A DNA stretch of 64,000 nt from an uncultured Actinomycetes bacterium. Its GTDB lineage: Bacteria; Actinomycetota; UBA4738; HRBIN12. The DNA lies in contig CAWCDA010000012.1 in NCBI GenBank assembly GCA_963794065.1, positions 3,032-67,031 of the forward strand, written 5' to 3'. Position numbers and translations under genes: made by a program. Below are positions 8,908 to 35,215 of the stretch, one piece after another (within the stretch, counting starts at the first letter, position 1; each line of letters opens with the position of its first letter). The notes under the pieces are model-generated. The model had not been told where the DNA came from and made no database searches. It worked only from the letters and a program-made list of their open reading frames with translations.

Positions 8908-8933
8908 GTTTCCGTTCCGCATGGCGCGGGTAG
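8908..8933 (+). promoter_or_regulatory. SigB/SigF-type promoter
   Basis: GTTT-N16-GGGTAG upstream of the 8976 gene. Confidence 0.75.
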
Positions 8934-8975
8934 ACGTCATCCGGATCTCGAACACAGAACGCGGGAGGTGGTCTC

Positions 8976-9302
8976 ATGCCCCGTACAGCGTGGAGCGCGA
9001 AGCGGGAACGGCAATACGAGCACATCAAGGACGGCCTCCAAGAGCAGGGTCGACCGGAGGATCTCGCCGAGGAGATCGCGGCGCGGACGGTGAACAAGGA
9101 GCGGGCGCGCGCCGGCGAGGCACGGACGGCGAGCCGGAGTTCGACCGACGACATCTCCTCGGGACGCCGCGGCGGGCTCCGATCCCACCGCGGTCCCGGC
9201 GGCCGTACGTTCGAGCAGCTGTACAACGAGGCGAAGGAGCGAGGGATCAAGGGCCGTTCGAAGATGAACAAGCAACAGCTTGAGCGGGCCCTGCGGCGAT
9301 AG
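8976..9302 (+). CDS. Basic stress protein often annotated plasmid stabilization protein; C-terminal Rho-N-like motif
   Basis: KRERQYEHIK, IAARTVNKERA, LYNEAKERGIKGRSKMNKQQL. Confidence 0.85.
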   Translation: MPRTAWSAKRERQYEHIKDGLQEQGRPEDLAEEIAARTVNKERARAGEARTASRSSTDDISSGRRGGLRSHRGPGGRTFEQLYNEAKERGIKGRSKMNKQQLERALRR

Positions 9303-9316
9303 CGATCGCCGCGACC

Positions 9317-10681
9317 TCAGGCAGGCACGAGTCGCGCCGCCTGCTGCATCGCCTCCTGAAGCGATGACGACAGGGTCGGGTACGCGTGGATCGTCGCCGC
9401 GCCCGTCTCGAGGGGGATACCGCCGCGCATCATCGCCGCGATCTCATGGATCATCGCGCCGGCTTGGGTCGCCACGATGTGGCCTCCGAGGATCCGCCCC
9501 CGCGCATCGGCCACGATCTTGACGATTCCCGCTTCCTGGTCGTCGATCATGGAACGCTCGTTGTCCGCGATCCGTGCACACCCGACGCGCACGTCCAGGC
9601 CGGCCTCTCGCGCCGCTCGCTCGGTGAGTCCGACGCTGGCTACCTCCGGGTCGCAGAACGTGACCCGCGGCACGACCCGATAGTCGCGGGCTCGGTGACC
9701 GCCCAAGAGGTTCTCGACGACGATGCCGGCCTCGTACGTGCCGACGTGCGTGAACAGGAGCTCACCGGTGACGTCTCCGGCCGCCCAGATGTCGGGGGCG
9801 GTCGTTCGCAGGACGTCGTCGAGTACGGGCGCGCCCGCCTCGGTGCGTTCCACACCCGCGGCCACCAGATCTTGGCCGGCCAATCTCGGCCTCCGACCCG
9901 TCGCCACGAGGAGCTCCTCCGCGCGTATCAGCTGTCGCCCGACCACCAGTTCCCAGCCCTCGGCGCCGTGGGTGGCTCGTTCGACGGACGCGTCGGCGAG
10001 CAGCTCGATCCCGTCGGCCTCGAGGACAGGCGAGATGCTGGCAGCGACGTCCTCGTCCTCGGCGGGCAGGATGTGGGGTGCGGCCTCGATCACGGTCACC
10101 CGACTGCCGAACCGCGCGTAGATCTGTGCGAACTCGACACCGATCGCGCCGCCCCCGACGATCGCGAGCGAGGCAGGCACCGTCGTGGGCGCCCAGATCG
10201 CCTCGACGTTCGTCCAGACAGGCCCATCGACGAGGCCCGGCACGGGCGGCAGGATCGGCTCGGAACCGGTCGTGACGACGATCGACGCCGCCGTCAGGAT
10301 CGAGCCGTCCGCGAGCTCGATCTCGTGCGGCCCGATGATGCGCGCCTCCTGTTCGAACACGTCGATGCCGGCGCGGGCGAACGGCGTCGCGCCCTGACCG
10401 GAGCCGTGGTCGATCACGGTTCGCATTCGCTCGCGAACGGCGGGCAGGTCGACCTCGACGCCGGTGACTCGTACGCCCGTCCGGCCTGCGCGGCGCGCGT
10501 TCGTGGCGAGCGCGGCCGCGCGCAGCATCACCTTGGTCGGGACGCATCCGTCGTGGCTGCAGGTCCCACCCAGGAGGTGTCGCTCCGCCAGGCCGATACG
10601 ACCCGCGCCCGCCCTCGCGAGTTGGAAGGCGACCTCCGATCCGGTCGCGCCGCCGCCGATGACGAAGGTGTCGAATTCCAT
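9317..10681 (-). CDS. Class I pyridine nucleotide-disulfide oxidoreductase (MerA/LpdA-like, atypical C-terminus)
   Basis: IGGGATG, GGTCSHDGCVPTK redox disulfide, GGGAIG, WAAGD; ends HAYPTLSS without a Cys pair. Confidence 0.9.
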   Translation of the reverse strand: MEFDTFVIGGGATGSEVAFQLARAGAGRIGLAERHLLGGTCSHDGCVPTKVMLRAAALATNARRAGRTGVRVTGVEVDLPAVRERMRTVIDHGSGQGATPFARAGIDVFEQEARIIGPHEIELADGSILTAASIVVTTGSEPILPPVPGLVDGPVWTNVEAIWAPTTVPASLAIVGGGAIGVEFAQIYARFGSRVTVIEAAPHILPAEDEDVAASISPVLEADGIELLADASVERATHGAEGWELVVGRQLIRAEELLVATGRRPRLAGQDLVAAGVERTEAGAPVLDDVLRTTAPDIWAAGDVTGELLFTHVGTYEAGIVVENLLGGHRARDYRVVPRVTFCDPEVASVGLTERAAREAGLDVRVGCARIADNERSMIDDQEAGIVKIVADARGRILGGHIVATQAGAMIHEIAAMMRGGIPLETGAATIHAYPTLSSSLQEAMQQAARLVPA

Positions 10682-10711
10682 GGATCGGTCCAGCGCAACC
10701 CTGCCCGGAGA

Positions 10712-10876
10712 TCAGCCGGAGTCGCGCAGTTGCTTGGCGAGCGCATGGATGTTGTCCGCTGCCGACTCGACATCGATGTCGGCCGCCTTCGCGGCCCGCT
10801 CCATCTGGGCCAACGTGATGTTGTCGGTGTTGCCGTGTTGCTCGTTCGGCTGTCCACAGCCACAGGACATGCACAT
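10712..10876 (-). CDS. 54-aa protein with N-terminal CxxCGC motif
   Basis: GAGGAG RBS; MCMSCGCGQPNEQHG; ends 30 bp upstream of the reductase. Confidence 0.78.
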   Translation of the reverse strand: MCMSCGCGQPNEQHGNTDNITLAQMERAAKAADIDVESAADNIHALAKQLRDSG

Positions 10877-11010
10877 CGGTACGTCTCCTCTCGTCGCTCG
10901 ACACGTGGCTTCCACGCTCGACCCGATGTCATGAGTGGGGGAGCTGCGGCCGGCGACCCTCCCCCCGGATCGTCACCGGCCGCGAGCTCGCACCCGCCTC
11001 ACGGCGATGT

Positions 11011-11035
11011 GTACCCAGGAGGCGGTCGACGAAAC
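11011..11035 (-). promoter_or_regulatory. SigB/SigF-type promoter
   Basis: GTTT-N15-GGGTAC upstream of the CxxCGC peptide-reductase pair. Confidence 0.7.
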
Positions 11036-11075
11036 CAGAGGGGTAGGAGTGGATCGATCCGGGTAGACCGGAGGC

Positions 11076-12152
11076 ATGGTGATGACCGCGTCTCGAGACG
11101 TGACCACCGGCCGGAGCCGCGACGCGATGCCTATGCCGACGCCGCGAGGTCCGGTCAGCGCCGAGTTGATCGCCGCGTGGGCCCGTGGCGGTCCACGGTT
11201 GGTGTCGCCCGGTCAGCTCGCGCACACCCGCGCCTGGGTACGGTCGCTGCCACCGGACACGGCGGTGGAGGACGACGATCTTCATCTCGCCCTGTACGCC
11301 TGTTACGAGTTGCACTACACGGGTGTTCGCGGCGTGGACGAGCGATGGGAGTGGGAGCCGTCCCTCCTGGCGTTCCGCGGGCTTCTCGAGGAGACCTTTG
11401 AAGCAGCGCTCCGCCGGATCGTGCCGGCACCCGATCTGAAGCCGGCCCAGATCGAACGTGCGCTGGCGGTGATCACCGGCCGACCCGGTGGTGCGCTGTC
11501 GACGTTCCTCGAACGCGACGCCGATCGGCGCCAGTTCGCGGAGTTCCTCGTGCACCGGTCCGCGTACAACCTGAAGGAGGCTGACCCTCACACGTGGGTG
11601 ATCCCTCGACTCCGCGGAGATGCCAAGGCGGCCCTTGTCGAGATCCAGGCCGATGAGTACGGCGGGGGCAGCCCGGCGTGGGTGCACGCCGCGATGTTCG
11701 CCTCGGCGATGCGGGCCGCGGACCTCGACGATCGGCCGGGCGCCTACGTCGACCGCCTGCCAGGCTCGACCCTGGCGACCGTGAACCTCATGTCCTTGTT
11801 CGGTCTGCATCGTCGGCTGCGCGGCGCCGCGATGGGCCACCTCGCTGCGTTCGAGATGACGTCGTGCACGCCGAATCGCCGCTACGGCAACGGGTGGCGC
11901 CGGCTGGGAGCAGACCGAGACGCGACCGCCTACTTCGACGAGCACGTCGAGGCCGATGCGGTGCACGGCGCCCTCGCTGCCCGCGATGTGGCGGGGGCGC
12001 TGGTGAGCGCCGAGCCGGCGCTGGACCGTGAGGTGCGGTTCGGGGCGGAGGCGTTGCTCGCGCTCGAGGATCGAGCGGGCAGCTGGCTCCTCGACGCCTG
12101 GCGACGCGGGGCGACGAGCCTGCTCGAGCCGGGTAGCACGCGCGCGGCCTAA
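11076..12152 (+). CDS. Iron-containing redox enzyme (heme-oxygenase-like diiron family)
   Basis: YNLKEADPH, EIQADEYG..H, GHLAAFE, YFDEHVEADAVH. Confidence 0.88.
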   Translation: MVMTASRDVTTGRSRDAMPMPTPRGPVSAELIAAWARGGPRLVSPGQLAHTRAWVRSLPPDTAVEDDDLHLALYACYELHYTGVRGVDERWEWEPSLLAFRGLLEETFEAALRRIVPAPDLKPAQIERALAVITGRPGGALSTFLERDADRRQFAEFLVHRSAYNLKEADPHTWVIPRLRGDAKAALVEIQADEYGGGSPAWVHAAMFASAMRAADLDDRPGAYVDRLPGSTLATVNLMSLFGLHRRLRGAAMGHLAAFEMTSCTPNRRYGNGWRRLGADRDATAYFDEHVEADAVHGALAARDVAGALVSAEPALDREVRFGAEALLALEDRAGSWLLDAWRRGATSLLEPGSTRAA

Positions 12153-12358
12153 GGCGTCGGTTCGCGTCGATCCCGCCCTGACGCGTGCGTACCGTCGCAG
12201 AGGGGACGGATGGACGACCGGCCGCATCGGCAGAGCGCGATGGTCGAGCGGTGCGTCTCGATCGGCTCGCCCGCCTCATCGAAGATCTCGACGGGACCAC
12301 GCACCAGGAAGGGCCCGTTCTCATACGCGGCGATGCTCGGCGCCCGTTGCTCGCTCAC
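12149..12358 (-). CDS. CDGSH iron-sulfur microprotein
   Basis: NGPFLVRG, ALCRCGRSSIRPLCDGTH. Confidence 0.9.
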   Translation of the reverse strand: MSEQRAPSIAAYENGPFLVRGPVEIFDEAGEPIETHRSTIALCRCGRSSIRPLCDGTHASGRDRREPTP

Positions 12359-12606
12359 GCCTCAGGCTCCGGCGGCGTCACGGTGTCCTCCGACTGACGG
12401 CGCTCGACGTCCAGGACCTCGGCGTCGGCGCCGGCCAGCGACCGCCCTGGAACCTGATGACCGCACGTGTAGGTGGTCACCTCGATGGTCTCGGCGCTCT
12501 GTCGGGGCTCGCTCTGGGCGTGCATCGGGTCGCGATCGAACGCGATGTCGGCGACGACGCCGATGCCACAGATCGGGCAGCGCAACTCCTCCGTTCGTTC
12601 GCTCAT
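12355..12606 (-). CDS. Small putative zinc-ribbon protein
   Basis: CPIC...YTCGH; GTGA overlap with the CDGSH gene; start 10 nt after a promoter -10 box. Confidence 0.72.
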   Translation of the reverse strand: MSERTEELRCPICGIGVVADIAFDRDPMHAQSEPRQSAETIEVTTYTCGHQVPGRSLAGADAEVLDVERRQSEDTVTPPEPEA

Positions 12607-12616
12607 CCGCTGGCGC

Positions 12617-12642
12617 CTACCCTTGCGTGAAGGGGCGCAAAC
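12617..12642 (-). promoter_or_regulatory. SigB/SigF-type promoter (probably leaderless)
   Basis: GTTT-N16-GGGTAG, ATG 10 nt downstream. Confidence 0.78.
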
Positions 12643-12645
12643 GCG

Positions 12646-13386
12646 TCAGGACTGCTCGCGCAGCTTGGCCAGGCTCTGGCTCAGGAGCCGCGAGACATGC
12701 ATCTGCGAGATGCCGATGTCCGCCGCGATCTCCGTTTGTGTCATGTCTTGAAAGAAGCGGAGGTACAGGATCCGCCGTTCTCGCGCCGACAGCAGTCGTA
12801 GCTTGGGCGCCATCGCTAGCCACTCCTCCGAGACTTCGAAGCGAGCGTCGTCGTCGCCGAGCAGGTCGCCTGTGACGGCGCCGGAGTCGCCGACCGGCTC
12901 GTCCAGCGATGCGCTTGTGTAGGCGCGTGACGCTTCGAGCGCCTCCAAGACGGCCTCCTCCGTGAGGTCGGTGCGCGCCGCAACGTCGGCGACCGTCGGG
13001 GCACGCCCGAGCTCCTGCCACAGGTCGGCCATCACACGGTTCACCTGCATGGTCGCTTCTTGCACGCTGCGCGGGACGCGAACGCCCCACCCGCGGTCGC
13101 GGAAGTACCGCTTGAGCTCCCCGACGATCGTCGCGGTGGCGAAGGTGGTGAAGCGGACCTCGCGCTCGGGATCGAATCGGTCGATGGCGTTGACCAGGCC
13201 GAGGCTCGCGACCTGCACCAGGTCGTCGTGCTGCTGCCCGCGGCCGCCGAAGCGCCGTGCGAGGTGCTCTGCCAGCGGGAGGAACCGCTCGGCCAGCTCT
13301 TCGCGCGCCGAGGGATCCGGCAGCCGTGCGAAGAGTGCCGCGATGACCGGATCCTCGGCGTCGCGGACCGTTTGGTCCGGTGTCAT
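12646..13386 (-). CDS. sigF: SigB/SigF/SigG-family RNA polymerase sigma factor
   Basis: DLVQVASLGLVNAIDRFDP, TIVGELKRYFRD..W.VRVPR, MTQTEIAADIGISQMHVSRLL. Confidence 0.93.
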   Translation of the reverse strand: MTPDQTVRDAEDPVIAALFARLPDPSAREELAERFLPLAEHLARRFGGRGQQHDDLVQVASLGLVNAIDRFDPEREVRFTTFATATIVGELKRYFRDRGWGVRVPRSVQEATMQVNRVMADLWQELGRAPTVADVAARTDLTEEAVLEALEASRAYTSASLDEPVGDSGAVTGDLLGDDDARFEVSEEWLAMAPKLRLLSARERRILYLRFFQDMTQTEIAADIGISQMHVSRLLSQSLAKLREQS

Positions 13387-13772
13387 CCCCCCGGTCCCTC
13401 GCCCACGACGAAGGCGACCTGCGCCCAGGCGTCCTCGACCGACAGCTCGGCATCGCGCGTGAGCTGGCGAATGACCCGCCAGGGCCAGGAGGTCGCGCGG
13501 TCGACGTGGAACGCCGTTCCGTCGGCATCCGTGCGGACCCGTACCTCGACGCCCGCCTCGGCGCTGGGCACGATCGACATCTCTAATCGCGATGCCCGGC
13601 CGCCGAGCAACAGGAGCGTCGCCGCCTCGTCGACCGCGATGCGGAATTCTTCGATCGCCACGACGTCCATGTCTCGGCGCGCCGCGATGCTGGCCGCGAC
13701 GGAGCGCAGCAAGGCCACGGTCTCGGCGCGGGCGGGGCCGGCGACGACGATCGGTTCTTCAGAAGAGACCAT
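13383..13772 (-). CDS. RsbW-like anti-sigma factor (degenerate kinase fold)
   Basis: LLRSVAASIA..IEEFRIAVDEAA; ATGA-coupled to the sigma gene. Confidence 0.75.
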   Translation of the reverse strand: MVSSEEPIVVAGPARAETVALLRSVAASIAARRDMDVVAIEEFRIAVDEAATLLLLGGRASRLEMSIVPSAEAGVEVRVRTDADGTAFHVDRATSWPWRVIRQLTRDAELSVEDAWAQVAFVVGEGPGG

Positions 13773-13851
13773 GTGCCTGCGTATAGTAAGAGCGCTCGCG
13801 GGGAACGCTGCGGAGGCATCCGGCGTGCGTCCGGACGAGTGGGAGGTCCGC

Positions 13852-14175
13852 GTGGAACTCGGCATCGACGTTACGACCTATCGCGGGTGGCAGGTGATCG
13901 CGGTCAGCGGCGACTTGGACCTGTACACCAGCCCGTCGCTGCGCACGAACCTGCACGAGGTCGGCGACGGCAAGATCGCGCTGGATCTGACGGACGTGAC
14001 TTTCATCGATTCGAGCGGCTTGGGGGCGGTGGTCGGCGCCTTGAAGCACGTCCGCGAGCGTGGCGGCGACTTCGCGGTGATCGCCCCGCCCGAGGGCTCG
14101 CTCACGCGACTCCTCACGCTCACTGGTCTGGATCAGATCGTCTCGCCGTTGGGCCGGCGAGAGGATCTCGCATGA
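13852..14175 (+). CDS. STAS-domain anti-anti-sigma factor (RsbV-like)
   Basis: GDLDLYT, LDLTDVTFIDSSGLG; GGAGG RBS before GTG 13852. Confidence 0.92.
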   Translation: MELGIDVTTYRGWQVIAVSGDLDLYTSPSLRTNLHEVGDGKIALDLTDVTFIDSSGLGAVVGALKHVRERGGDFAVIAPPEGSLTRLLTLTGLDQIVSPLGRREDLA

Positions 14176-14528
14176 GCGCCGAGGAAGCGGGCTACTCGCT
14201 GCGCGTGCCGTCCGATCCCGCGCTGGGGGTGACGGTGCGAACCTTCGTCCGCTCGAGCGGGGCCGCGCTGGGTCTGCCGGAGGTGGATGTGGAGACGCTG
14301 AGCCTGGCGGCCACGGAGCTGCTTGCGAACGCCGTCGAGGCGCGCGAGCCGACGTTGGAGCTGACCCTGGCCGCCACCGAGGGACGCTGGACCCTACGGG
14401 CGACGGGCGTCGGCCCGATCCGTTCGATCGTCGGCGAGGAGATCGATCGTCGAGCGCTGCTGTCGGGTCTGGGCGACATCCAGGTCGATCCCACCGGAGG
14501 CTTCCAGCTGTCCTCCGTGCCCGACTAG
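14172..14528 (+). CDS. HATPase_c-like anti-sigma protein
   Basis: LAATELLANA N-box; ATGA overlap with the STAS gene. Confidence 0.75.
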   Translation: MSAEEAGYSLRVPSDPALGVTVRTFVRSSGAALGLPEVDVETLSLAATELLANAVEAREPTLELTLAATEGRWTLRATGVGPIRSIVGEEIDRRALLSGLGDIQVDPTGGFQLSSVPD

Positions 14529-14568
14529 TCGTTCCCGTTGCGCAAGCACCTCGATCCATCGAGCCTCT

Positions 14569-14593
14569 CTACCCACGCTTAGACGCAGGAAAC
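14569..14593 (-). promoter_or_regulatory. SigB/SigF-type promoter antisense to STAS/HATPase genes, pointing at rsbW-sigF
   Basis: GTTT-N15-GGGTAG on the minus strand. Confidence 0.6.
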
Positions 14594-14595
14594 CC

Positions 14596-14621
14596 GTTTG
14601 GGCTCGGGTGCAGCGGGGAAC
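14596..14621 (+). promoter_or_regulatory. SigB/SigF-type promoter
   Basis: GTTT-N16-GGGAAC upstream of the 14677 gene and otsA. Confidence 0.65.
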
Positions 14622-14676
14622 ACCTCCCCTCGACGGATGCCGGTCATGTGTCGGCGCCCACGAGGGGGAATGCGTC

Positions 14677-15042
14677 ATGGAAGCAGCGGAGATCTTGCGG
14701 CCCAGCGGATCACTGTCTGCGAGCGAGCCCGGTGGCCGCCCGCGAACGGCAAGGTTCCGCCCGGGTCGCGTCTGTGCCGCCGACGGGTGCGCAACAGTGC
14801 TGTCGTCCTACAATCCCGATGAATGCTGTTGGATCCATACGGAGCCTCGTCCGAAGATCGCGCTCGGCCGGCGGCCAGCCGAGGTCGAGGGGCCTCGTGT
14901 CCTGTCGCCCCCGGAGGAGCTCGGGCTGATCAAGTCCCTCGTCGGGTCTCGCCGTGGACGTCACCCGGAGCCGGCGCCCGAGCCCACGCCCGCGCCGCCG
15001 GCCCCACCCCAGCCGAGCCCGCAGCCCGTGCCTATGTCGTGA
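14677..15042 (+). CDS. Hypothetical protein with Cys/His motif and Pro-rich tail
   Basis: GAGGGGG RBS; RVCAADGCATVLSSYNPDECCWIH. Confidence 0.65.
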   Translation: MEAAEILRPSGSLSASEPGGRPRTARFRPGRVCAADGCATVLSSYNPDECCWIHTEPRPKIALGRRPAEVEGPRVLSPPEELGLIKSLVGSRRGRHPEPAPEPTPAPPAPPQPSPQPVPMS

Positions 15043-15079
15043 GCGAAGTGGGTGAGGAGGGGCACCGGCTCGCGCGAGC

Positions 15080-19985: not shown

Positions 19986-20039
19986 ATACCCGCGACCCGA
20001 ACGCTCCAAACCGTGTTTCCGTCGCCGCCGTCGGGGAAT
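19986..20039. promoter_or_regulatory. Back-to-back SigB/SigF-type promoters
   Basis: Minus GTTT-N16-GGGTAT (20011-19986), ATG 10 nt downstream; plus GTTT-N15-GGGAAT (20015-20039), GTG 9 nt downstream. Confidence 0.8.
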
Positions 20040-21477: not shown

Positions 21478-21521
21478 GCGCCCCTTCCTGGCCCGATCGA
21501 GGCGGGGTCAAACGTTTCGGG

Positions 21522-21547
21522 GCTTAGATCGTCCCCCGACGGGGTAG
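21522..21547 (+). promoter_or_regulatory. SigB/SigF-type promoter (variant -35)
   Basis: GCTT-N16-GGGTAG upstream of the nucleotidyltransferase operon. Confidence 0.55.
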
Positions 21548-23751: not shown

Positions 23752-23815
23752 GTACCCAGCGGGCGGGCACGCGAACCGAGCCGCGAGGTGGTTCGAGCGG
23801 CCCCCGAGCGGGTAC
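23752..23815. promoter_or_regulatory. Back-to-back SigB/SigF-type promoters
   Basis: Minus GTTC-N15-GGGTAC (23776-23752); plus GTTC-N15-GGGTAC (23791-23815), ATG 9 nt downstream. Confidence 0.75.
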
Positions 23816-24106: not shown

Positions 24107-24132
24107 GTTTCGCGCGCCGATCCTCCGGGAAT
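24107..24132 (+). promoter_or_regulatory. SigB/SigF-type promoter
   Basis: GTTT-N16-GGGAAT upstream of the PRC-barrel gene. Confidence 0.72.
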
Positions 24133-24577: not shown

Positions 24578-24898
24578 TCAGGCCCCGGCGTCGGGACCTT
24601 CGATGCGGATCGCCGGACGGGTCGCCTCGAGCGCCACGAGATCGAAGACCCGTTGCACGGCGGGAGCCACGTTGCGCAACACGAGCACGTCGTCCGGGGG
24701 CAATCGATCGGCTAACACGAGGAGCGCTCGGACCCCGCTGCTATCGATGAATGCAAGCTCGTCGAGCTCCAGCACGACGTCGCCGGTCCCGCTGAGGTCA
24801 CCGATCCCGGTCAGGAAGTTGTCCGTCTCGGCGACGTCGAGCTCCCCTTCGAGCCGGAACGTGCGTGGTTGCCCTTCCTCGATGGAGAACGTCATCAA
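24578..24898 (-). CDS. STAS-domain anti-anti-sigma factor
   Basis: LEGELD, LAFIDSSGVRAL. Confidence 0.88.
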   Translation of the reverse strand: MMTFSIEEGQPRTFRLEGELDVAETDNFLTGIGDLSGTGDVVLELDELAFIDSSGVRALLVLADRLPPDDVLVLRNVAPAVQRVFDLVALEATRPAIRIEGPDAGA

Positions 24899-24946: not shown

Positions 24947-27900
24947 CTACGTGACCGCGCTCGCACCGTCGACGCCGCGGATGTCCACAGAGGCCCCTGC
25001 GCGACCGGGCCCGATCGCGCGCTGCATGCGCACGGTGGTCCCTTCGCTGGACCGTTCGATCGTGATCGTGTCCATGCAGGCGCGGATCAGCAGCAGCCCG
25101 TGGCCGCGATCGGGCTCGCTGGGCTCGTCGCGCCACACCCCACGGTCGCGAACCTCGACGGTCAGCGACGACGGGCCGGTCCACACGTCGACCCCCACAC
25201 GGTGCTGGCCTCGCCGTCCGTGCTCGATCGCGTTCGCGACGGCTTCGTTCGTCGCCAGGATGATCGGTTCGATCTCCGACTCGTCGAGCTTGCTGCGCCG
25301 CAGCCATCCGCCGAGCTGGGCGCGAAGGCCCGAGAGCTCCGCTGGGTCCGATTCGAGGATCGCGGAAAAGCGATCCGCCGCGACCGCCGAGCGGCACACG
25401 CACAGCAGCGCGACGTCATCATCCTGCTCCGTGCCGTCCAACATGCGCAGGACGATCTCGTCGGCGCGGGTCTCGAGGTCGAGCGCGGCCGTCGCGGCCA
25501 GCGCCCGGCCGAGCCGCTGGATGCCCCGGTCGATCAGTTCGCCTCGCCGCTCCACGAGACCATCGGTATAGAGCGCCAACGTGGCCCCGACGGCAAGGTT
25601 GACGCTGGCCTGCGTGCGGACGCCGGTCGCGCCCGCCGCGAGCAACGGCGAGCGCCCATCCTCGAGGACGTCGACCTTCCCGCCTGTCTCCACGAGCGGT
25701 GGCGGATGTCCCGCGATGCAGTACCGGAACTCGCCCGTGTCCGCGTCCAGCTCGCCGTACACCACCGTCGACATGGCAGCGTTCGGTGTTCGTTCCGCGA
25801 ACGCCTCGAGCCCGTCGATCACCGCGGCGGGACCGAGATCCTGCAGCGCGAGGGCTCGGAGGGCGCTTCTGAGCTGGCCCATTGCCGCCGCGGCCTCGAG
25901 CCCGCGGCCGACAACGTCGCCGATCGCGACCGCAAGCCGATGCGGTGTCAGCGCGATCACCTCATACCAATCCCCGCCGACCTCGAGATGCTCCGCGCCT
26001 GGCTGATACCGCGCCGCGACGCTGAAGGCGGGCGTCTGGGTGAGATCCCGCGGTAAGAGGCTGCGCTGCAGGACGCTTGCGACCTCCTGCTCCTGGCCGA
26101 ACAGACGCGCGCGGTCCATCGCCTGTGATGCCTGCGAGACCAACGTCGCGAGGGCGCCCTGCAGCTCTTCGCCCGGGCCGGGTGGCTCGAACGCCAGATG
26201 GGCGAAGCCGATCGCGCCTGACTCGTTCAGCAGCGGGACGGTCAGCCACACCGTGGGGTCGAGGGCCCCGTCATCGATCGTCTTGGGGTAGCGCCGACGC
26301 GCGTCCTCGACATCGCGGATCCACACATTGCCGCGCGACGCGATCGCGTCGTCGCCCGGCCATCGGATGCTCAGCTCGATGCAGCGCTCCGCGTCGAGCG
26401 GATCGGGCGGGCCCGAGCGCCGCAAGACTCGCTGCGAGCCCTCCGGATCCACGACGCCGACCGTCGCGGAGCGTGCCTGCAGGAGGCGGGCCCCCACCCC
26501 GACCAGGACGTCGGCGACCTCGGTCGTGCTCGTCGCGGCGGCGAAGGCGGCCGCCACCCCCTGCAATCGCAGGGCGCGGTCGGCGAGTTCGCGCTCCGAC
26601 TCGAACAGACGGGCGCGCTCGAAGGCTTGTGCGGCGTGCTGGCCCATCGTCGTCGCCAGCTGGCGTTCTTCGCGCTGCATCGCGTGCTCCCGGCGAAAGA
26701 GCAGGCCGAGCACGCCGAGCACGGTCTCGCCCTCCGTCACGAGTGGCACCGCGAGCACCGATCCTGTCTGCTGGTGGTAGCCAGGCGGCGCATCCGCGTA
26801 GCGGCGACGCCACTCCACACGCGTCGGGATCCACACGGTGCGACCGGTGCGGAACGCCTCGGCGACCGCGAGTGGCGCGTCGAGCTCGATGCGGTCGGCG
26901 CCGTCCCACACACCCTCGCTCTTGCCTTGCCGGGCGATCGGTAGCAGGACGGGACCCACCGGCACGAACAACGCCACGCTCGTCGAACCCAATGACTGCA
27001 TCACCTGGGTCGTGATCGTGTCGGCGACCTCGTCGGCGCGGAGGCGTGGGGTCAGCGCCGCCGTCACACTCTGCAGGCGCCCGAGTCGGGACATCGCCCG
27101 TTCCAGCGCGCCCCGGGTCGTGAGTTCTGCCTCGTAGGCCCGAGCCCGTTCCAGCGCCTGGGCGAACATGCCGGTGATGGCGTCGAGCAGGTCCCATTCC
27201 GGCTCATCCAGGCGACGCGGCTGGGTGTAGTTGATCGCCACGATCGCGACCGGCTCGTCGTGCACCATCACCGGCAAGACGACGCTCGCCTGGACCCCCA
27301 GCTCCTCGGCCACCTTGACGCGCTCCGGGTATCGGTCGCGGACCTCGTCCCGTGAGGTCAGTTCGACGGGCGCCCCGCGCGCGATGGCGTCCGCGACGGG
27401 GCCGCCGGCGGCCGCGATGCGGGCGAGACCTTCCGACGCCGCCGCGGGGTATCCGCGGGAGGCCAGCATCACGATGTCCGGTCCCTCGATCGTGCCGATG
27501 TAGCCCATCGTCGCACCGAGCAATCCGAGGCTCTCCAGGAGGGTTTCGGCCATCTCGCTCATCGTCCGGTCGCGTGCGAGCCCCGCAGAGATCGACTGGA
27601 GGGCCCGTTCGCGCACGAGCGCCCGTTCGAGCTCGCTGAGGTGCCGGGCGCGTTCCAGCGCGACACCGGACTGCCGGGCGATGGTCGCCAGCATCTCGAG
27701 CTCGTCCGCATCGAACGCGCGTTGCTCGGCGCGCATCACGTTGAGCACACCCTGCGTGCCCCCTCGCCCGGGGATCGGGATGAAGGCCGCGGCGTGGTAC
27801 GGGAGCGATCGGATGCGCTCGCCGCGGTCCGGGAAACGCTCGATCATCTCGTCCTGTGAACCGAACACCCCCGACTCGCCGGAGTGCACGACCGCTTCGA

Positions 27901-28126
27901 GGAACCCGTCTCGATCCTCGATCGGAGAGCGGAGGGCCGGCATCATCTCGGACGGGTAGCCGGAGACCGCGCCGATGATCATCGTGCCGTCCTCGATCAG
28001 CACCACGGCGCCCGCCGACACATCGACTGACGCCATCGCCCCGGCGCAGGCGATGTCGGCGATCTCCCCGTCGGAGGAGGCCGCGGCAAGCGCACCCGTG
28101 ATGGCTTGCAACGCGCGGGTGTCCAT
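24947..28126 (-). CDS. Multi-GAF SpoIIE/PP2C phosphatase with C-terminal HATPase_c (partner-switching sensor)
   Basis: About four GAF repeats ending ALERAR; LQRSLLP, VGGDWY, GDVVGRG, YTDGLVE, DDVA; NEAVANAIEH, GHGL. Confidence 0.92.
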   Translation of the reverse strand: MDTRALQAITGALAAASSDGEIADIACAGAMASVDVSAGAVVLIEDGTMIIGAVSGYPSEMMPALRSPIEDRDGFLEAVVHSGESGVFGSQDEMIERFPDRGERIRSLPYHAAAFIPIPGRGGTQGVLNVMRAEQRAFDADELEMLATIARQSGVALERARHLSELERALVRERALQSISAGLARDRTMSEMAETLLESLGLLGATMGYIGTIEGPDIVMLASRGYPAAASEGLARIAAAGGPVADAIARGAPVELTSRDEVRDRYPERVKVAEELGVQASVVLPVMVHDEPVAIVAINYTQPRRLDEPEWDLLDAITGMFAQALERARAYEAELTTRGALERAMSRLGRLQSVTAALTPRLRADEVADTITTQVMQSLGSTSVALFVPVGPVLLPIARQGKSEGVWDGADRIELDAPLAVAEAFRTGRTVWIPTRVEWRRRYADAPPGYHQQTGSVLAVPLVTEGETVLGVLGLLFRREHAMQREERQLATTMGQHAAQAFERARLFESERELADRALRLQGVAAAFAAATSTTEVADVLVGVGARLLQARSATVGVVDPEGSQRVLRRSGPPDPLDAERCIELSIRWPGDDAIASRGNVWIRDVEDARRRYPKTIDDGALDPTVWLTVPLLNESGAIGFAHLAFEPPGPGEELQGALATLVSQASQAMDRARLFGQEQEVASVLQRSLLPRDLTQTPAFSVAARYQPGAEHLEVGGDWYEVIALTPHRLAVAIGDVVGRGLEAAAAMGQLRSALRALALQDLGPAAVIDGLEAFAERTPNAAMSTVVYGELDADTGEFRYCIAGHPPPLVETGGKVDVLEDGRSPLLAAGATGVRTQASVNLAVGATLALYTDGLVERRGELIDRGIQRLGRALAATAALDLETRADEIVLRMLDGTEQDDDVALLCVCRSAVAADRFSAILESDPAELSGLRAQLGGWLRRSKLDESEIEPIILATNEAVANAIEHGRRGQHRVGVDVWTGPSSLTVEVRDRGVWRDEPSEPDRGHGLLLIRACMDTITIERSSEGTTVRMQRAIGPGRAGASVDIRGVDGASAVT

Positions 28127-28218
28127 CGGTCCATCCTGCGGCAGCGCCCCCGGCTGCGGCAAGCCGTGCATGCCGCACGACGCGACTGGGTACACACGTT
28201 CGGCGGCGTGAGAGTCAC

Positions 28219-28788
28219 GTGGCGAGGAACGGGAGGTCCGGGCGCATGTTCGACACAGCGACGGGAATCACAGAAGGCATCCGGGACGAGCGCGCAGCGT
28301 TGCGCGAGCGTTCGATGGATTGGCGGCAACGGCGGCTCCAGCACAAGGTGGACGCGCTGCACGGGGAACTCGACCGCGAGCGCGAGGCTCGCCGTGCGCT
28401 CGCGGACGCGATGAGCAGCAGCGTTGGCCGTACGAAGCGGAGCCGCGGTTTCCTGCGGCTGCTGCTGATCGGGGGCGGCGCCTACATCTTGGGCACCCGC
28501 GCAGGCCGCGAGCGGTACGACCAGATGATCGGATGGTTCCGAGGCACGCGCGATCGCGCCGTGACGACCGCCAAGGACGTGCAGGGCGACGCGGTTCAGG
28601 CTGCGGGCCAGGTTCGCGACGTGGCGAAGGACACCGCGCGCTCGATGGGCGATGAGATGAAGAAGACTGCGGCGCAGGTTCGGGATGACACGTCGAGGGG
28701 CGCGCGCGCGATGGGCGAGGACACGGGTGAGGCCGTGCAACGGCTCCGTCGAGAGTTGGCCCCCTCCCCGGACGTAGCGGATGTGTAA
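28219..28788 (+). CDS. YtxH-like/LEA-like stress protein
   Basis: Coiled coil, GAYILGTRAGRERY, repetitive QVRD helical tail. Confidence 0.65.
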   Translation: MARNGRSGRMFDTATGITEGIRDERAALRERSMDWRQRRLQHKVDALHGELDREREARRALADAMSSSVGRTKRSRGFLRLLLIGGGAYILGTRAGRERYDQMIGWFRGTRDRAVTTAKDVQGDAVQAAGQVRDVAKDTARSMGDEMKKTAAQVRDDTSRGARAMGEDTGEAVQRLRRELAPSPDVADV

Positions 28789-28854
28789 TGCCGTCTTCGG
28801 GCGGGAAGGCATGACGCCGACGACGTGGATCGAGCGTCGAAGGAGGTAATTGAT

Positions 28855-29547: not shown

Positions 29548-29742
29548 ATGATGGGCGAAAAGATCGACAAGACGAAGGGTCACGCCAAGGAGGCCGTCGG
29601 GGATCTCACCGGCGACAAGGACCTGGAGCGTGAAGGCAAGATTGATCAGGCCGGCGGCGCCATCAAGGGCGCCGCGGAGCGAGCCAAGGACAAGGTGGAC
29701 GAGAACGTCGACGCTGCGAAGCGCCACGCGAACGATCACTGA
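29548..29742 (+). CDS. csbD: CsbD-family general stress protein
   Basis: KGHAKEAVGDLTGDKDLEREGKIDQ. Confidence 0.92.
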   Translation: MMGEKIDKTKGHAKEAVGDLTGDKDLEREGKIDQAGGAIKGAAERAKDKVDENVDAAKRHANDH

Positions 29743-31235: not shown

Positions 31236-32798
31236 TTATGGGGTCGTGGATACCGAGACGGCCGGCGAGGGAGCGGTGATCGAAGGCGCCACGATCGTGG
31301 CGTTGGCGTTCGACGAGCTCGAGGCGCTCGTCGTCGCGCCGGTGTCCGACGCCGGGATCGCAACCATGGTGCAACCGGGTGTGGACGTGGTCGTCGGCGT
31401 GCAGGTCGGCAGGGGCGTGTCCCCCGCGGCCACAGCGATCGTCAGGTAGCGACCAGCTGGGGGCATCGCGATCTGTTGCACGACCCTCGCCGTCCCATCC
31501 TGCGAGGCGAAGGCGACCCGATTCGCCAGCACCGAGGGCGCCGCGTCGCTGGCGGTGAACGACTGGACGTCGACGGAGATCGTCGCGTCCGGATCGGCGT
31601 TCGCCACGTCCACCTGGATCGTCGCGAGCACCGGGCTGGTGGCCGTCTCGAACGTCACCGAGGTGCTCGAGGTGGCCGCGACGTCGGTCGCGAGAACGGG
31701 AGCCACGCCGACCATGAGCGCGACGACAAAGAGCACGACGGAGATCGCAGACGCCCACCCGATCAGCGCGGTTCGACTCGAGTAGAGGCGCCGCACGTCG
31801 AAGGTGTCGTTCACGTTCGCCTCGGGGTCCCGTGTGACGAACCACGGCAGCGCCGCGAACACGATGGCGGCGGTCGCGAGTAAGAGCGACACCTCCAGCC
31901 ACACGGCGTGATCCCGGGCGGCAACCGCGAGCCCGCCGGAGACCCACGCGCAGAGCAGCACGGCGGTCGCGACCAGCACTTCTGCAGCGACCAGCCACGC
32001 CGTGCCCCGTTCCGCGCGGGCAAGTTCGGCGCTCGGGAACAGATCCTCCGGGGCAGTTTCTTCGACCGATGCGTCGAGGCCGCCGGCCGCCGTTCCGTAC
32101 ATCACCGCGGGCTCTCGACCCTCCAACCCGGTGAACAGGGCCGCGTGGGGCCGATCCGCCGCTTCGACGACCGGACACGGGACGATCACGCGCCACGGCG
32201 CATCGGCGATCACCTCGCCGACGGCAGCATGCGGCGCGGTCCGGATCGCATCGATCACGGCCTCCTCGTCGGTGCCTGCGATCGCGATACGAGCGGCGAG
32301 CTCGTGCAGATCGAAGATGCCCTGCGGGATCACGCGCACCCGCGGCTGCGTCCGGGTGAGCACGCCGGTACTGCTACCGGGGTCGCCGCCAGCATGACGG
32401 CCGTCGTCCTCCAAGAGGATCACGTCGTCGTGCGGGTCGCCCCCCGGCTGCGCACCGGCCGGGCCGGCCGCGAGCCGGTCCAAGAGCGACGTGTCGCGCC
32501 GCAGGTCGTCCCACTCGTATCGACCGCGTGTGCGATCGGACGACCGCGCCGATACGAGCACGACCGGCAGGTTCGTGGGTTCGGCTTCCCCGGCGATGAA
32601 CTGCTCGATCTTCCTCCGTCGGTCGACCGAGGGCCCGGGCAGGGCAAGGGCCTCCTCCACCAGGTCCTCGGTGACGGCGAGGTACACGGCGGGGCGCGGT
32701 ACGAGAGACCGTTCGAGTCGGACGCTGTCGGTCAGATCCACGGGAACGCGCTTGCCGTCTCGGCGGTGGGATGAATGCACACACAGATATCTGGTCAT
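31236..32798 (-). CDS. Unrecognised 520-aa membrane protein (soluble N-domain, 3 TM, S/T-rich beta C-domain)
   Basis: Long ORF with natural composition; ATG 9 nt after a SigF-type -10 box. Confidence 0.8.
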   Translation of the reverse strand: MTRYLCVHSSHRRDGKRVPVDLTDSVRLERSLVPRPAVYLAVTEDLVEEALALPGPSVDRRRKIEQFIAGEAEPTNLPVVLVSARSSDRTRGRYEWDDLRRDTSLLDRLAAGPAGAQPGGDPHDDVILLEDDGRHAGGDPGSSTGVLTRTQPRVRVIPQGIFDLHELAARIAIAGTDEEAVIDAIRTAPHAAVGEVIADAPWRVIVPCPVVEAADRPHAALFTGLEGREPAVMYGTAAGGLDASVEETAPEDLFPSAELARAERGTAWLVAAEVLVATAVLLCAWVSGGLAVAARDHAVWLEVSLLLATAAIVFAALPWFVTRDPEANVNDTFDVRRLYSSRTALIGWASAISVVLFVVALMVGVAPVLATDVAATSSTSVTFETATSPVLATIQVDVANADPDATISVDVQSFTASDAAPSVLANRVAFASQDGTARVVQQIAMPPAGRYLTIAVAAGDTPLPTCTPTTTSTPGCTMVAIPASDTGATTSASSSSNANATIVAPSITAPSPAVSVSTTP

Positions 32799-32807
32799 CC
32801 GGCTCGT

Positions 32808-32833
32808 CTACCCCGTTCTCGAAATGTGCAAAC
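32808..32833 (-). promoter_or_regulatory. SigB/SigF-type promoter (probably leaderless)
   Basis: GTTT-N16-GGGTAG. Confidence 0.78.
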
Positions 32834-32839: not shown

Positions 32840-33160
32840 CTATCGGGTGCTGGCCCGCTCCCCGCGGTCGATCTCGGTGTCCGTCACGATGCGTTCCACG
32901 ATGTCGCCGGGGAGATCCTCTTCGTCCCGGGCGGCCTCCTCCTCCTGCTGCTTCACCTCGACGCGCGCTGCCTGCCACGCCGCCCAGTGGCCCGACACGA
33001 GCGCCCACAACGAGAGCGCGGCGACGTAGGTCACGCTGCTGATCCAGTGCGTCACGATCGAGATCGGGATCATGGCGAGCCACAAGATCGTCAGCCAGCC
33101 GTTGACGCGTCGCATGAAGACGGGGTCGCCCTGGATCGAGGCCCACATGGATTTCAGCAC
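32840..33160 (-). CDS. Small Trp-rich two-TM protein with acidic tail
   Basis: [30 protein letters not shown]; GGAGG RBS. Confidence 0.75.
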
Positions 33161-33187: not shown

Positions 33188-33249
33188 GTTCCCATCTCTG
33201 CAGGGGCGCAAACCTCTGCAGGAGGTTCGATCTCGAGCGAAGCGGGTAT
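33188..33249. promoter_or_regulatory. Back-to-back SigB/SigF-type promoters
   Basis: Minus GTTT-N16-GGGAAC (33213-33188); plus GTTC-N15-GGGTAT (33225-33249), ATG 9 nt downstream. Confidence 0.75.
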
Positions 33250-33258
33250 CGAGCGCCG

Positions 33259-34095
33259 ATGCGCATCCGACGGAGGGCTCGCCTCGACCCCGGACAGATC
33301 TCGGATCGCCGTGGGATGTCAGCCGGTGGCCCCGTCGCGATCGGCGGCGGCGTCGTTGGGCTGATCGTCGCCGTGATCCTGCTGCTGGTCCAAGGTGGAT
33401 CGGGCGGCTCGGCGCCCCAAGAGAGCGGAAGCGCGTCGGACCTGTCGACCTGTCGCACCGGCGCCGACGCTCGGCAGCAGGAGGATTGCCGCATCGTGGC
33501 CTACGTGAACAGCATCCAGGGGTATTGGACCGACGCGCTCGGTGGCTACCGGCCTGCGAAAACGGTGTTGTTCACGGACCGGACCTCGAGCGCTTGCGGC
33601 ACGGCGACCACCCAGGTCGGTCCTTTCTATTGCCCCGGTGACGAACACGTCTACATCGACCTCGGGTTCTTTCGCGAGCTGACCCAGACCTACGGGGCGC
33701 GCGGCGGTCCTCTCGCACAGGCGTACGTCCTGGCGCACGAGTACGGCCATCATGTGCAGGATCTGCAAGGAACGTTCGACCGGGTCGACGGTACCGACAC
33801 GGGGCCCGAGAGCGATTCGGTCCGTTTGGAGTTGCAGGCGGACTGCTACGCAGGCGTCTGGGCGGCGAACGCGGTCTCGACCGGGTTCGTGACCGGCATC
33901 ACCGATCAGGATGTCGCCGATGCGTTGAGTGCGGCGGCGGCGGTGGGTGACGATCGGCTCCAGCAGGAGTACCAGGGCCATGTGAACCCTGAGACATGGA
34001 CACACGGGTCCGCCGAGCAGCGGACCACCTGGTTCCTGACCGGTTACCGCGCGGGAAACGCCGGAGACTGCGACACCTTCAGCGGGACTATCTGA
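33259..34095 (+). CDS. YpfJ-family neutral zinc metallopeptidase
   Basis: [31 protein letters not shown]. Confidence 0.93.
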
Positions 34096-34100
34096 GCTCG

Positions 34101-34247
34101 CTACTCGGTATCCTCGACCGGCAGGAGCTCCCCGTCGTGGTCATCCATCAGATGCGCGGAGAGTTCCTCCTGGGTTGCGAACGTGCGGCCGCACACGTGG
34201 CAGGTGCCGATCTCTCCATCGCCTCGCTGCTCTGTGCGCTCCGTCAC
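34101..34247 (-). CDS. 48-aa C2H2 zinc-finger microprotein
   Basis: CHVCGRTFATQEELSAHLMDDH; AAGGAG RBS; GTG overlaps the PAP2 stop. Confidence 0.8.
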   Translation of the reverse strand: MTERTEQRGDGEIGTCHVCGRTFATQEELSAHLMDDHDGELLPVEDTE

Positions 34248-35152
34248 GACGTCTCCTTCCGTTCGCGTTCGCGCATTCCTGCCCCGACGGCGTTGTCGGC
34301 AAACCTGGGTCCCGAGCCGGCAGCGACTTGTTCCGGTGTGGCGAAGCGCATGATCCGGCCGCCGAACGCGACGGCGCACAGCGCGACCCAGGCCCACCCT
34401 AGGACCAGCCCTCCGATCGCATCCGATAGCCAGTGGACGCCGAGGAAGACCCGCGAGCACGCCACCGCCACCGCAAGCGCCGCGGCGATCCCCCCCAGGA
34501 TCATCCGTCGGATGCCAGGCCCCTCACGACCGAGGACGACGGCGACGGCGGCGAACGTCGCCGCGGCGGCGGTCGTGTGTCCACTGGGGAACGACGGCCC
34601 CGTAAACCCCGCCAGCGGATGCAGGTCGGGCCGGGCACGCTGTACGGCCCCCTTGATCAGGTTCGAGAGAACGAGTTGACCGACGATCACGATCGCCAAG
34701 AACAGCGGGATCGATCGACTTCGCCAGCGCCAGAACGCATACGCGGCGGTGAGGATCCCGACGATCGCGACGGTGATGGTCGCGCCCAGCCCCGTCAGGA
34801 GGCGCAGGACCGAGATCGACACGGCGGTCATGCGCGGATCGCTCCAACGCTCGACGGCTCGATCGATCCCGACGAGACCGGTCTGCGTCCGCACCATGTA
34901 GACCAGGATGCCGAGCGCGATACCGGCCGCCACGGTGGCGACCAGCCCCACGGTGAGCGCGAGCCCCGTCGTAACACCCCGTTCCACACGAGAGCGCAGG
35001 AACCGGCGGATCCAGGAGTGCGAGCGCAGCTCCTCGCCGAGAGCGCGACTCGCCGTGAGCGCGGGGTCGGATCGAGGCGCGGCGTGCACGGCGAGCGCGG
35101 CGAGAGCTCCGACGAGAAGGCTGATGCCGGCGACGACTCCAAGGATCTCCAT
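34244..35152 (-). CDS. PAP2-family membrane phosphatase
   Basis: K..V.RARP, PSFPSGH, SRVFLGVHWLSD. Confidence 0.92.
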   Translation of the reverse strand: MEILGVVAGISLLVGALAALAVHAAPRSDPALTASRALGEELRSHSWIRRFLRSRVERGVTTGLALTVGLVATVAAGIALGILVYMVRTQTGLVGIDRAVERWSDPRMTAVSISVLRLLTGLGATITVAIVGILTAAYAFWRWRSRSIPLFLAIVIVGQLVLSNLIKGAVQRARPDLHPLAGFTGPSFPSGHTTAAAATFAAVAVVLGREGPGIRRMILGGIAAALAVAVACSRVFLGVHWLSDAIGGLVLGWAWVALCAVAFGGRIMRFATPEQVAAGSGPRFADNAVGAGMRERERKETS

Positions 35153-35188
35153 CGGTGCCTCCGAGAGCGGGTTCGATGAGCGCGAGGT

Positions 35189-35215
35189 TTACCCGACGGG
35201 GTGTTGCAGGGAAAC
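35189..35215 (-). promoter_or_regulatory. SigB/SigF-type promoter
   Basis: GTTT-N17-GGGTAA upstream of the PAP2-C2H2 pair. Confidence 0.55.

Follow-up and report, generated by a model that had tools for sequence, protein, structure and literature searches.

The window analyzed here is a stretch of 64,000 nucleotides (nt) of DNA from an uncultured soil actinobacterium, and contains at 12646-13386 the gene for a sigma factor of the SigB/SigF family. The region of 26.4 kilobases (kb) around this gene is very probably a general-stress regulon island, in which the sigma factor, itself controlled by partner switching, would read a series of closely spaced promoters. In the proposed scheme the sigma factor would be held inactive by an RsbW/UsfX-like anti-sigma factor encoded just upstream. 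Its release would presumably involve two STAS antagonists, a second RsbW-like protein and a sensor of 1082 amino acids (aa) that consists of GAF, PP2C and kinase domains. Once freed, the sigma factor would direct RNA polymerase to promoters of the form GTT(T/C)-N15-17-GGG(T/A)A. Fourteen convincing copies of this element and one doubtful copy are present within 26 kb and are predicted to head about 14 transcription units. The fourteen strict sites head same-strand runs of genes with gaps of at most 38 nt, which together account for 23 of the 36 genes from 8976 to 36048. The units would serve trehalose synthesis and turnover and redox functions, and would include CBS, PRC, BON and DUF6328 proteins, two PAP2 phosphatases, a Zn-peptidase and about ten small or unknown proteins.

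The window (G000:C12:3032-67031) is part of a 3.11-Mb bin of 71 contigs with a G+C content of about 70%, for which completeness is rated at 77.5% and contamination at 2.9%. The nearest named records are metagenome-assembled genomes labeled 'uncultured Actinomycetes bacterium'; the host is called a soil actinobacterium here. A codon log-odds model trained on the long open reading frames (ORFs) of the genome called 3097 genes, and the gene map of the region 8976-36048 was curated using Pfam, NCBIfam and conservation. Operon membership was taken from gene spacing only. The motif, its excess, clustering, orientation and conservation, as well as the families of the regulators, were computed directly. 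Three close relatives were compared: G031 (sigma factor 98% identical, DNA about 92%), G032 (91%, DNA 77-80%) and G033 (85%, DNA about 74%). Seven distant relatives, with sigma factors that are 54-70% identical, complete the comparison set.

Sites are named below by position and strand. A scan of the window with the pattern G[TC]T[TC]-N15-17-GGG[TA]A recovers, at the same coordinates and on the same strands, all 15 sites listed in the initial annotation. All of them lie in gaps of the curated gene map and all except 14593- are oriented into a gene, as had been claimed. The four back-to-back pairs described earlier are also present, with their -35 boxes separated by 2, 3, 14 and 11 nt. The same pattern yields five additional matches, three of which (11216+, 20943+ and 34032+) are inside genes of the region and one (48583+) inside a gene beyond it. 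The fifth, 42442-, is located in an intergenic gap, has a GCTC -35 box and is aimed at the 3' end of a gene. There is no convincing site in intergenic DNA beyond 36 kb, in agreement with the earlier scan by eye.

The elements are far more frequent than expected. GTTT-N15-17-GGGWA (W is A or T) has 11 matches in the window where 0.29 would be expected, a count that none of 100 shuffles attains, and GTTC-N15-17-GGGWA occurs 5 times against 1.29 expected. Genome-wide there are 41 GTTT-type matches, 34 of them intergenic, compared to 12, with 4 intergenic, for a reversed, non-complemented control; the corresponding figures for the GTTC type are 109 and 44. The GTTT-type counts peak at spacers of N16 (21 matches), N15 (11) and N17 (9), with 2-11 matches for N10-14 and N18-23. 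The sites thus have the character of SigF/SigB-type promoters, namely a bipartite GTTT...GGGTA or GTTT...GGGAA arrangement with a preferred spacer of N15-17.

The clustering is equally pronounced. The region constitutes 0.85% of the genome and holds 15 of the 150 GTTY..GGGWA matches (Y is T or C), against 1.27 expected (Poisson P=9e-12), as well as 11 of the 41 GTTT..GGGWA and 7 of the 22 GTTT..GGGTA matches. Fourteen of the 58 intergenic GTTY sites fall into its 0.66% share of the intergenic DNA, whereas the next-best 26.4-kb window has four, and controls with permuted boxes give zero intergenic matches in the region. Motif density is therefore higher here than in both the shuffles and the rest of the genome. 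About a quarter of the predicted promoters of this sigma type are packed into 26 kb around the sigma gene. The initial annotation had described a self-contained regulon clustered with its sigma gene; the clustering is borne out, but the regulon is not self-contained, because 30 of the 41 GTTT-type sites and 44 of the 58 intergenic GTTY sites lie elsewhere. These precede, for example, Transgly_assoc, two Iron_permease, BrkB, DoxX and GNAT genes. Back-to-back pairs number eight genome-wide, against 0.11 expected by chance, and the four outside the window are at C44 25173-25225, C47 14575-14630, C48 715-770 and C68 1621-1686. Two small contigs, C68 (6.5 kb) and C48 (7.4 kb), contain three to four motif sites apiece and lack a counterpart in both G031 and G032. 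The island itself may continue on contig C49, because a piece of C49 maps just past the end of C12 in G031. No repeat family connects the sites, and an origin as copies of one mobile repeat was therefore rejected.

The distance between promoter and gene is unusually regular. Six start codons (12606, 19975, 20049, 23825, 32798 and 33259) lie 10-11 nt past the last A of GGGWA, which equals the 9-10 nt noted previously when six bases are allotted to the -10 box. For all 150 strict matches, start codons that open at least 40 codons peak at this same distance. There are 14 such starts among the 58 intergenic matches and 12 among the 92 matches classed as coding, and most other distances have about 1-2. 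About 21 of the starts at 10-11 nt have a positive coding score, six of these being in the region. Furthermore, the spacing is kept in orthologues, for example those of the CBS, 520-aa and Zn_peptidase genes, although the bases between box and start codon change. Leaderless starts are an actinobacterial trait. The spacing suggests that the six units are most likely expressed as leaderless mRNAs, with transcription starting at or next to the start codon.

For every site but 21522+, hence for 14 of the 15, one or more relatives carry a strict counterpart in the equivalent position. Alignments with G031, G032 and G033 show that the boxes are kept, whereas spacer and flanks have diverged, at 12618- (the site 12642-), 24107+, 32809- (32833-) and 33189- (33213-). 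The syntenic region has 15 strict intergenic sites in G031, 9 in G032 and 13 in G033, compared to whole-genome totals of 130, 119 and 101, respectively. Upstream of the 14 first genes led by a motif, a strict or mildly relaxed motif is kept within 300 nt in 50 of 61 orthologue instances, and in 17 of 27 for the seven distant relatives. Seven motif-less control genes (anti-sigma, GAF-PP2C, p180, CsbD, cyclase, TopoIB and Haem_oxygenas_2) have one in 2 of 35 orthologues and in 2 of 16 from the distant relatives. Gene by gene, the motif is kept for the 121-aa protein in 7/9, for the CBS protein in 7/7 (strict), for DUF6328 in 4/4 and for the 106-aa protein in 5/5 relatives. For the 520-aa protein it is kept in 4/4, including G001, where the protein is only 32% identical. 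The sites thus precede genes, 14 of the 15 read into them, and they are retained among the relatives.

An orthologue of the sigma factor with 52-70% identity was found in 22 of the 30 relatives searched (20 of 28 without the unpublished genomes G018 and G023). Within 40 kb around it there are 11 strict sites in G001, 9 each in G006, G005 and G019, and 7 in G002, where about 2-3.5 are expected given the totals for the whole genomes. Clustering around the orthologue recurs in eight of the ten relatives examined. The gene content of close relatives differs by whole blocks, each consisting of a promoter plus its gene.

The sigma factor has the group-3 architecture, with regions 2, 3 and 4 and no region 1.1. 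Its family assignment in the initial annotation is correct: it scores 272.1 bits against TIGR02980 (cut-off 234.35) and is the sole match above the cut-off in the assembly. Its score against NF005514, the model of the mycobacterial SigF subfamily, is 258.3 bits and below the cut-off of 372. The protein is predicted to be SigF-like in function, yet it is outside that subfamily model. Its best match in the PDB is the SigB-type sigma factor 8x6g_H (8e-47), and the helices of regions 2.4 and 4.2 are near-identical.

The sigma gene is accompanied by genes for partner switching, with both STAS antagonists and a PP2C phosphatase present. The first STAS protein (13852-14175) reaches 71 bits against TIGR00377 (cut-off 53). 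The second small RsbW-like protein (14172-14528) matches NF041045 RsbA_anti_sig at 4e-8, below the cut-off, and a PDB search with it gave no match. The genes for the 1082-aa GAF-PP2C protein and the second STAS protein are ten kilobases away from the sigma gene. All of these regulator genes lack a canonical upstream motif, both in the window and in the relatives. For the 1082-aa protein this holds in the window and in 7/7 relatives, and for the anti-sigma/sigma operon neither a strict nor a relaxed motif is found within 300 nt upstream in the window and 7/7 relatives. Autoregulated sigB/sigF operons are known, for example from the PB promoter of B. subtilis and the usfX promoter of M. tuberculosis. 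No such arrangement is seen in the window; the distant antisense site 14593- is the sole candidate for feeding the operon.

A different sigma factor might use these promoters. The sites would then be real SigB/SigF-type promoters read mainly by a lost paralogue or through cross-recognition, and their clustering would be only partly meaningful. This is improbable. Cross-recognition has been described among the SigB homologues of S. coelicolor (PMC8346170), and contig C31 encodes a second group-3-like sigma factor, but the latter scores 138 bits on TIGR02980, below the cut-off that the sigma factor of the window alone passes. A paralogue might have escaped a bin that is 77.5% complete; however, no relative has a second close one, the second-best matches being about 30% identical, and the sites cluster around the orthologue in most relatives.

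That the sites are not promoters at all, but operators of a regulator binding the AAAC-N2-16-GTTT palindromes of the back-to-back pairs, is highly improbable. The excess of such pairs and the tight AAAC-NN(N)-GTTT palindromes formed by two of them would fit an operator, but 7 of the 15 window sites stand alone. A conserved bipartite unit whose spacer is sharply optimal at N15-17, together with a constant orientation towards genes and a constant distance of 10-11 nt to the start codon, is typical of promoters rather than of a symmetric operator, and the consensus equals that of experimentally defined SigF promoters (PMC4694148). Chance, that is, a short degenerate motif picked by eye in DNA of 70% G+C, can be dismissed for 14 of the 15 sites: the widest form of the motif is no commoner than its reversed control (348 against 438 genome-wide), but shuffles, spacer profile, intergenic bias, clustering and conservation exclude chance for the GTTT and GTTC sites, leaving 21522+ as the exception.

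Several observations weigh against a regulon island of the kind proposed. The GCTY class is not enriched (198 GCTY..GGGWA matches genome-wide against 361 for the reversed control), so that nothing genome-wide supports a C at the second position of the -35 box, which makes 21522+ (GCTT) the weakest site. The latter also lies in a 1.7-kb insertion, 21516-23237, which is specific to this genome and has no counterpart in the relatives. Consequently, the claim of at least 15 cognate promoters is reduced to 14 convincing sites, with 21522+ doubtful. The GTTC sites are individually weaker, because 2 of 100 shuffles reach their count in the window. An unbiased comparison of 5-mers in the intergenic DNA of the region and in the rest placed GGGTA second after GGAGG (13 against 4.1 expected), a weakly supportive result whose uncorrected P=3e-4 is lost on correction for 512 words. 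Two relatives depart from the pattern: G022 has only 1 strict site near the sigma orthologue and G011 only 2 in 60 kb, although G011 seems to use GGGCA -10 boxes instead. The relatives are kin, so that the conservation counts are not independent, and the genome-wide motif counts are lower bounds, the bin being only 77.5% complete; a second SigB/F-type sigma factor could be missing from it. The codon-usage caller assigned too much of the DNA, 18%, to intergenic space and misplaced some starts. Finally, the protein encoded at 13383-13772 is a probable anti-sigma factor of the RsbW/UsfX type on the strength of sub-threshold matches: HATPase_c_2 (E=9.7e-4) is below the Pfam cut-off, RsbW models match the N-terminal part only (E=1e-4), and the PDB entries 8jzt_B and 8ih8_C, both 'Anti-sigma-F factor RsbW', match with E of about 7e-6. 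Which sigma factor reads the sites, where transcription starts, where the operons end and which stress induces them we infer from the DNA. The regulon island nevertheless is the reading that we prefer, and its elements are listed in the table.

Table. Promoter-like sites and regulatory genes of the proposed regulon island (coordinates of the window; genes in the fourth column are those behind a site)
Coordinates	Strand	Feature	Genes behind site or family support	Remarks
8908..8932	+	GTTT-N16-GGGTA	108-aa Rho_N-like protein 8976-9302	43-nt leader, GGGAGG Shine-Dalgarno; boxes kept in G031, G032
11012..11035	-	GTTT-N15-GGGTA	54-aa protein 10712-10876; Pyr_redox_2 oxidoreductase 9317-10681	counterparts in G031, G032, G033
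12618..12642	-	GTTT-N16-GGGTA	83-aa Cys-rich protein 12355-12606; CDGSH 12149-12358	ATG 11 nt past -10 box
12646..13386	-	group-3 sigma factor, SigB/SigF/SigG family, 246 aa	Pfam Sigma70 regions 2, 3, 4	
13383..13772	-	probable RsbW/UsfX-type anti-sigma factor, 129 aa		stop overlaps sigma start
13781..13805	+	relaxed GTAT-N16-GGGAA	STAS gene	overlaps sigma-70-like TTCAGA-N18-TATAGT
13852..14175	+	STAS anti-sigma-factor antagonist, 107 aa	Pfam STAS 3.3e-16	first in divergent two-gene unit
14172..14528	+	second small RsbW-like HATPase_c_2 protein, 118 aa	Pfam HATPase_c_2 2e-5, below cut-off	
14570..14593	-	GTTT-N15-GGGTA	no credible ORF	antisense, into 3' end of STAS/HATPase unit; about 790 nt upstream of anti-sigma start
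14596..14620	+	GTTT-N16-GGGAA	121-aa Zn-ribbon-like protein 14677-15042; OtsA 15080-16630	
19987..20011	-	GTTT-N16-GGGTA	CBS 19526-19975; 67-aa protein; 57-aa GPGG membrane protein; GH15/TREH_N 17263-19101	ATG 11 nt past -10 box
20015..20038	+	GTTT-N15-GGGAA	DUF6328 20049-20522	GTG 10 nt past -10 box
21522..21546	+	GCTT-N16-GGGTA	NTP_transf_5, BON, Metallophos 21606-23301	weakest site
23753..23776	-	GTTC-N15-GGGTA	DUF7712 23252-23686	in G031 topoisomerase IB directly next
23791..23814	+	GTTC-N15-GGGTA	93-aa protein 23825-24106	ATG 10 nt past -10 box; kept in G031, G032, G033
24107..24131	+	GTTT-N16-GGGAA	PRC-barrel protein 24184-24519	boxes kept in G031, G032, G033
24578..24898	-	second STAS antagonist, 106 aa	Pfam STAS 4.9e-10	downstream of 1082-aa regulator
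24947..28195	-	GAF x3-PP2C (SpoIIE)-HATPase_c_2 sensor, 1082 aa	GAF_2, GAF, GAF_3; SpoIIE 4e-41; HATPase_c_2 3e-24	
28783..28807	+	relaxed GTGT-N16-GGGAA	203-aa membrane protein 28855-29466	
32809..32833	-	GTTT-N16-GGGTA	520-aa membrane-anchored protein, no known family, 31236-32798	ATG 10 nt past -10 box
33189..33213	-	GTTT-N16-GGGAA	106-aa membrane protein 32840-33160	
33225..33248	+	GTTC-N15-GGGTA	Zn_peptidase-family protein 33259-34095	ATG 10 nt past -10 box
35187..35213	+	relaxed GTTT-N18-GGGAA	second PAP2 35224-36048	same DNA as 35190..35215 (-)
35190..35215	-	GTTT-N17-GGGTA	PAP2 34244-35152; 48-aa zinc-finger protein	overlaps mirror-image + strand site

The site 14593- is the only one that does not point into a gene. 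It is kept in G031 and G033, is absent in G032 and was not seen in the distant relatives. An ATG at +10 opens an ORF of 266 codons (13759-14559), which was rejected as the gene of this promoter: its coding score is -100 and the real genes, STAS and HATPase_c_2, are on the other strand. No terminator-like site was found in 12300-15100, hence there is none between the promoter and the anti-sigma gene. The site could produce an antisense RNA or a long leader that feeds the sigma operon.

A wider reading takes the island as an evolvable docking area, in which cassettes of about 40 base pairs, GTTT-N16-GGGTA-N10-ATG, join and leave. The transcript from 14593- would silence the STAS/RsbW-like unit and read into the anti-sigma/sigma operon, resulting in an excludon-like autoregulation. 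Such a picture draws on the block-wise differences in gene content, on C68 and C48, which lack counterparts in G031 and G032, on the eight back-to-back pairs and on the lack of a terminator-like site between 14559 and the anti-sigma gene. As a whole it is doubtful. The docking area, with promoter and leaderless start acting as one unit, may be conserved across an order of uncultured Actinomycetes.

Several of the proteins encoded in the proposed regulon island belong to no recognized family. Pfam and NCBIfam give no family for those at 10712-10876, 12355-12606, 14677-15042, 19326-19529, 23825-24106, 28246-28788, 31236-32798 and 32840-33160. In a search of the protein atlas, the proteins of 520 and 121 aa matched nothing but unnamed actinobacterial clusters. 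The 121-aa protein has a C-x4-C ... CC-W-x-H core and a negative score in the coding model. It is nevertheless present around the sigma orthologue in 10/10 relatives. Of the other proteins, the GPGG peptide occurs in eight of these regions, those of 67 and 180 aa in six each, and those of 83, 106 and 203 aa in five each. The small ORFs are regarded as real genes because they are conserved as proteins beside the sigma orthologue. The initial annotation had assigned about ten unrecognized small proteins to a desiccation and general-stress programme. Their position behind promoters and their conservation beside the sigma orthologue support the assignment to a stress programme. The desiccation label could not be upheld: it comes from gene content alone (OtsA, GH15, BON, CBS and PRC), and nothing decisive that links desiccation to sigF in actinobacteria was found in the literature. 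CsbD, also named as a typical member, is not supported as one, as its gene (29548-29742) has no motif upstream here nor in 4/4 relatives that have it.

The 203-aa membrane protein and the second PAP2 protein, each preceded by a relaxed site, may also belong to the promoter-led set. The relaxed site 28783+ has a counterpart in G031, G032 and G011, but not in G006 and G005. The site 13781+ is doubtful because the STAS orthologue has no motif in 9/9 relatives. Between the divergent PAP2 genes, 35187-35215 is a mirror-image element, GTTTACCC...GGGTAAAC, which is promoter-like on both strands. Its counterparts in G031 and G033 are strict on both strands, the + strand having N17. A similar overlapping pair precedes the PRC gene of G033, and another is at G011:C3:817234-817260. 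The counterpart of 33225+ has GTTT in G033 and a non-strict -35 box in G032.

Other observations concern the layout of the region. The Haem_oxygenas_2 and CDGSH genes at 11037-12349 are missing there in G031 and present in G032 and G033, and one break point of this difference abuts the -35 box of the promoter 11035-. The insertion 21516-23237 stands between the genes for DUF7712 and topoisomerase IB; in G031 these two lie side by side behind a single promoter. The junctions of the insertion have no clear target duplication or mark of a mobile element. The 180-aa protein 28246-28788 combines a membrane segment with a helical tail that is charged and repetitive (weak Apolipoprotein-like match); it has no motif upstream here, whereas its weak homologues in G005 and G006 have one. 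The convergent otsA and GH15 genes are separated by a gap of 632 nt (16631-17262), which is about 72% identical to G011 and has no Pfam, NCBIfam or Rfam match. Neither the ORFs of this gap nor the long OtsA ORF of G011 contain a trehalose-phosphatase domain, and no trehalose-6-phosphate phosphatase gene was seen in the island. Rfam at gathering thresholds gave zero matches in the window.

The closest known systems include the SigF regulon of M. smegmatis with its RsbW/RsfA/RsfB partner switch. The motif equals the mycobacterial SigF consensus, as the initial annotation had stated. The published forms of the latter are GTTT-N14-19-GGGTA (PMC4694148) and GGWWT-N16-17-GGGTAY (PMC7693655), and Table 1 of Singh et al. 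2015 lists SigF-dependent promoters as GTTT-N15-17-GGGTA/GGGAA (PMC4694148). A GGGTA motif was also reported at 56 hypoxia-induced transcription start sites by Martini et al. 2019 (PMC6448022). Many M. smegmatis SigF promoters are 8-11 nt from the annotated start codon, and a nearly unbroken SigF-dependent block with about 16 listed promoters extends from MSMEG_1766 to sigF (MSMEG_1804) and ends with rsbW-sigF (PMC4694148). Thus the same consensus including GGGAA, the short distance to the start codon and a block of dependent genes beside the sigma gene are common to both organisms. The block also holds a hypothetical gene with a type I topoisomerase (MSMEG_1783-1784) and, beside a STAS gene, an additional RsbW homologue (rsfA-rsbW3) (PMC4694148, PMC7693655). 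The former recalls the DUF7712 and topoisomerase IB genes of G031 behind the counterpart of 23776-, and the latter the pair of STAS and small HATPase_c_2 genes in the window. Trehalose genes belong to the SigF regulon of M. smegmatis as well (PMC4694148, PMC7693655).

The differences are nevertheless clear. The sigma factor of the window is below the NF005514 cut-off of the SigF subfamily. In M. smegmatis sigF (at more than 1 kb upstream) and rsbW3 have the motif, whereas the anti-sigma/sigma operon and the STAS/RsbW-like unit of the window are without a canonical one. The sensor in the window is a single protein of 1082 aa with three GAF domains, PP2C and kinase, and the lineage is uncultured and known here from sequence alone. 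No published remark on the clustering of promoters beside sigF was found in a text search of the literature and in word searches within PMC4694148.

The SigB system of B. subtilis and other Firmicutes shares with the window the TIGR02980 family, partner switching (predicted for the window) by RsbW, RsbV (STAS) and PP2C proteins, the GTTT -35 and GGGTA -10 boxes, and small general-stress proteins as members. The closest solved relative of the sigma factor is likewise of the SigB type. Unlike in Bacillus, the sigma gene is outside an rsbV-rsbW-sigB operon behind its own promoter, CsbD lacks the motif, and the spacer is N15-17, the spacer of Bacillus SigB promoters being shorter. The SigB network of S. 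coelicolor, which has a role in osmotic stress, likewise uses an actinobacterial SigB/F-type promoter with a GGGTA -10 box, but comprises nine cross-recognizing homologues (PMC8346170), whereas one family member was found in the assembly studied here.

The layout is an ordinary example of a regulon arrangement that is already visible in M. smegmatis, and no new mechanism is revealed. Mildly interesting features are the conserved small proteins of unknown function, the gain and loss of promoter-plus-gene blocks between close relatives, the abundant back-to-back and mirror-image pairs and the conserved antisense promoter 14593-. The analysis provides a regulon prediction, made from DNA only and supported by comparison, for an uncultured genus of soil actinobacteria. 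About ten conserved proteins, including those of 121, 83, 93, 106 and 520 aa and the GPGG membrane peptide, would be placed in the general stress response. Promoters of the SigF type kept beside the sigma gene, and often predicted to be leaderless, appear to be common in this order rather than a peculiarity of M. smegmatis.

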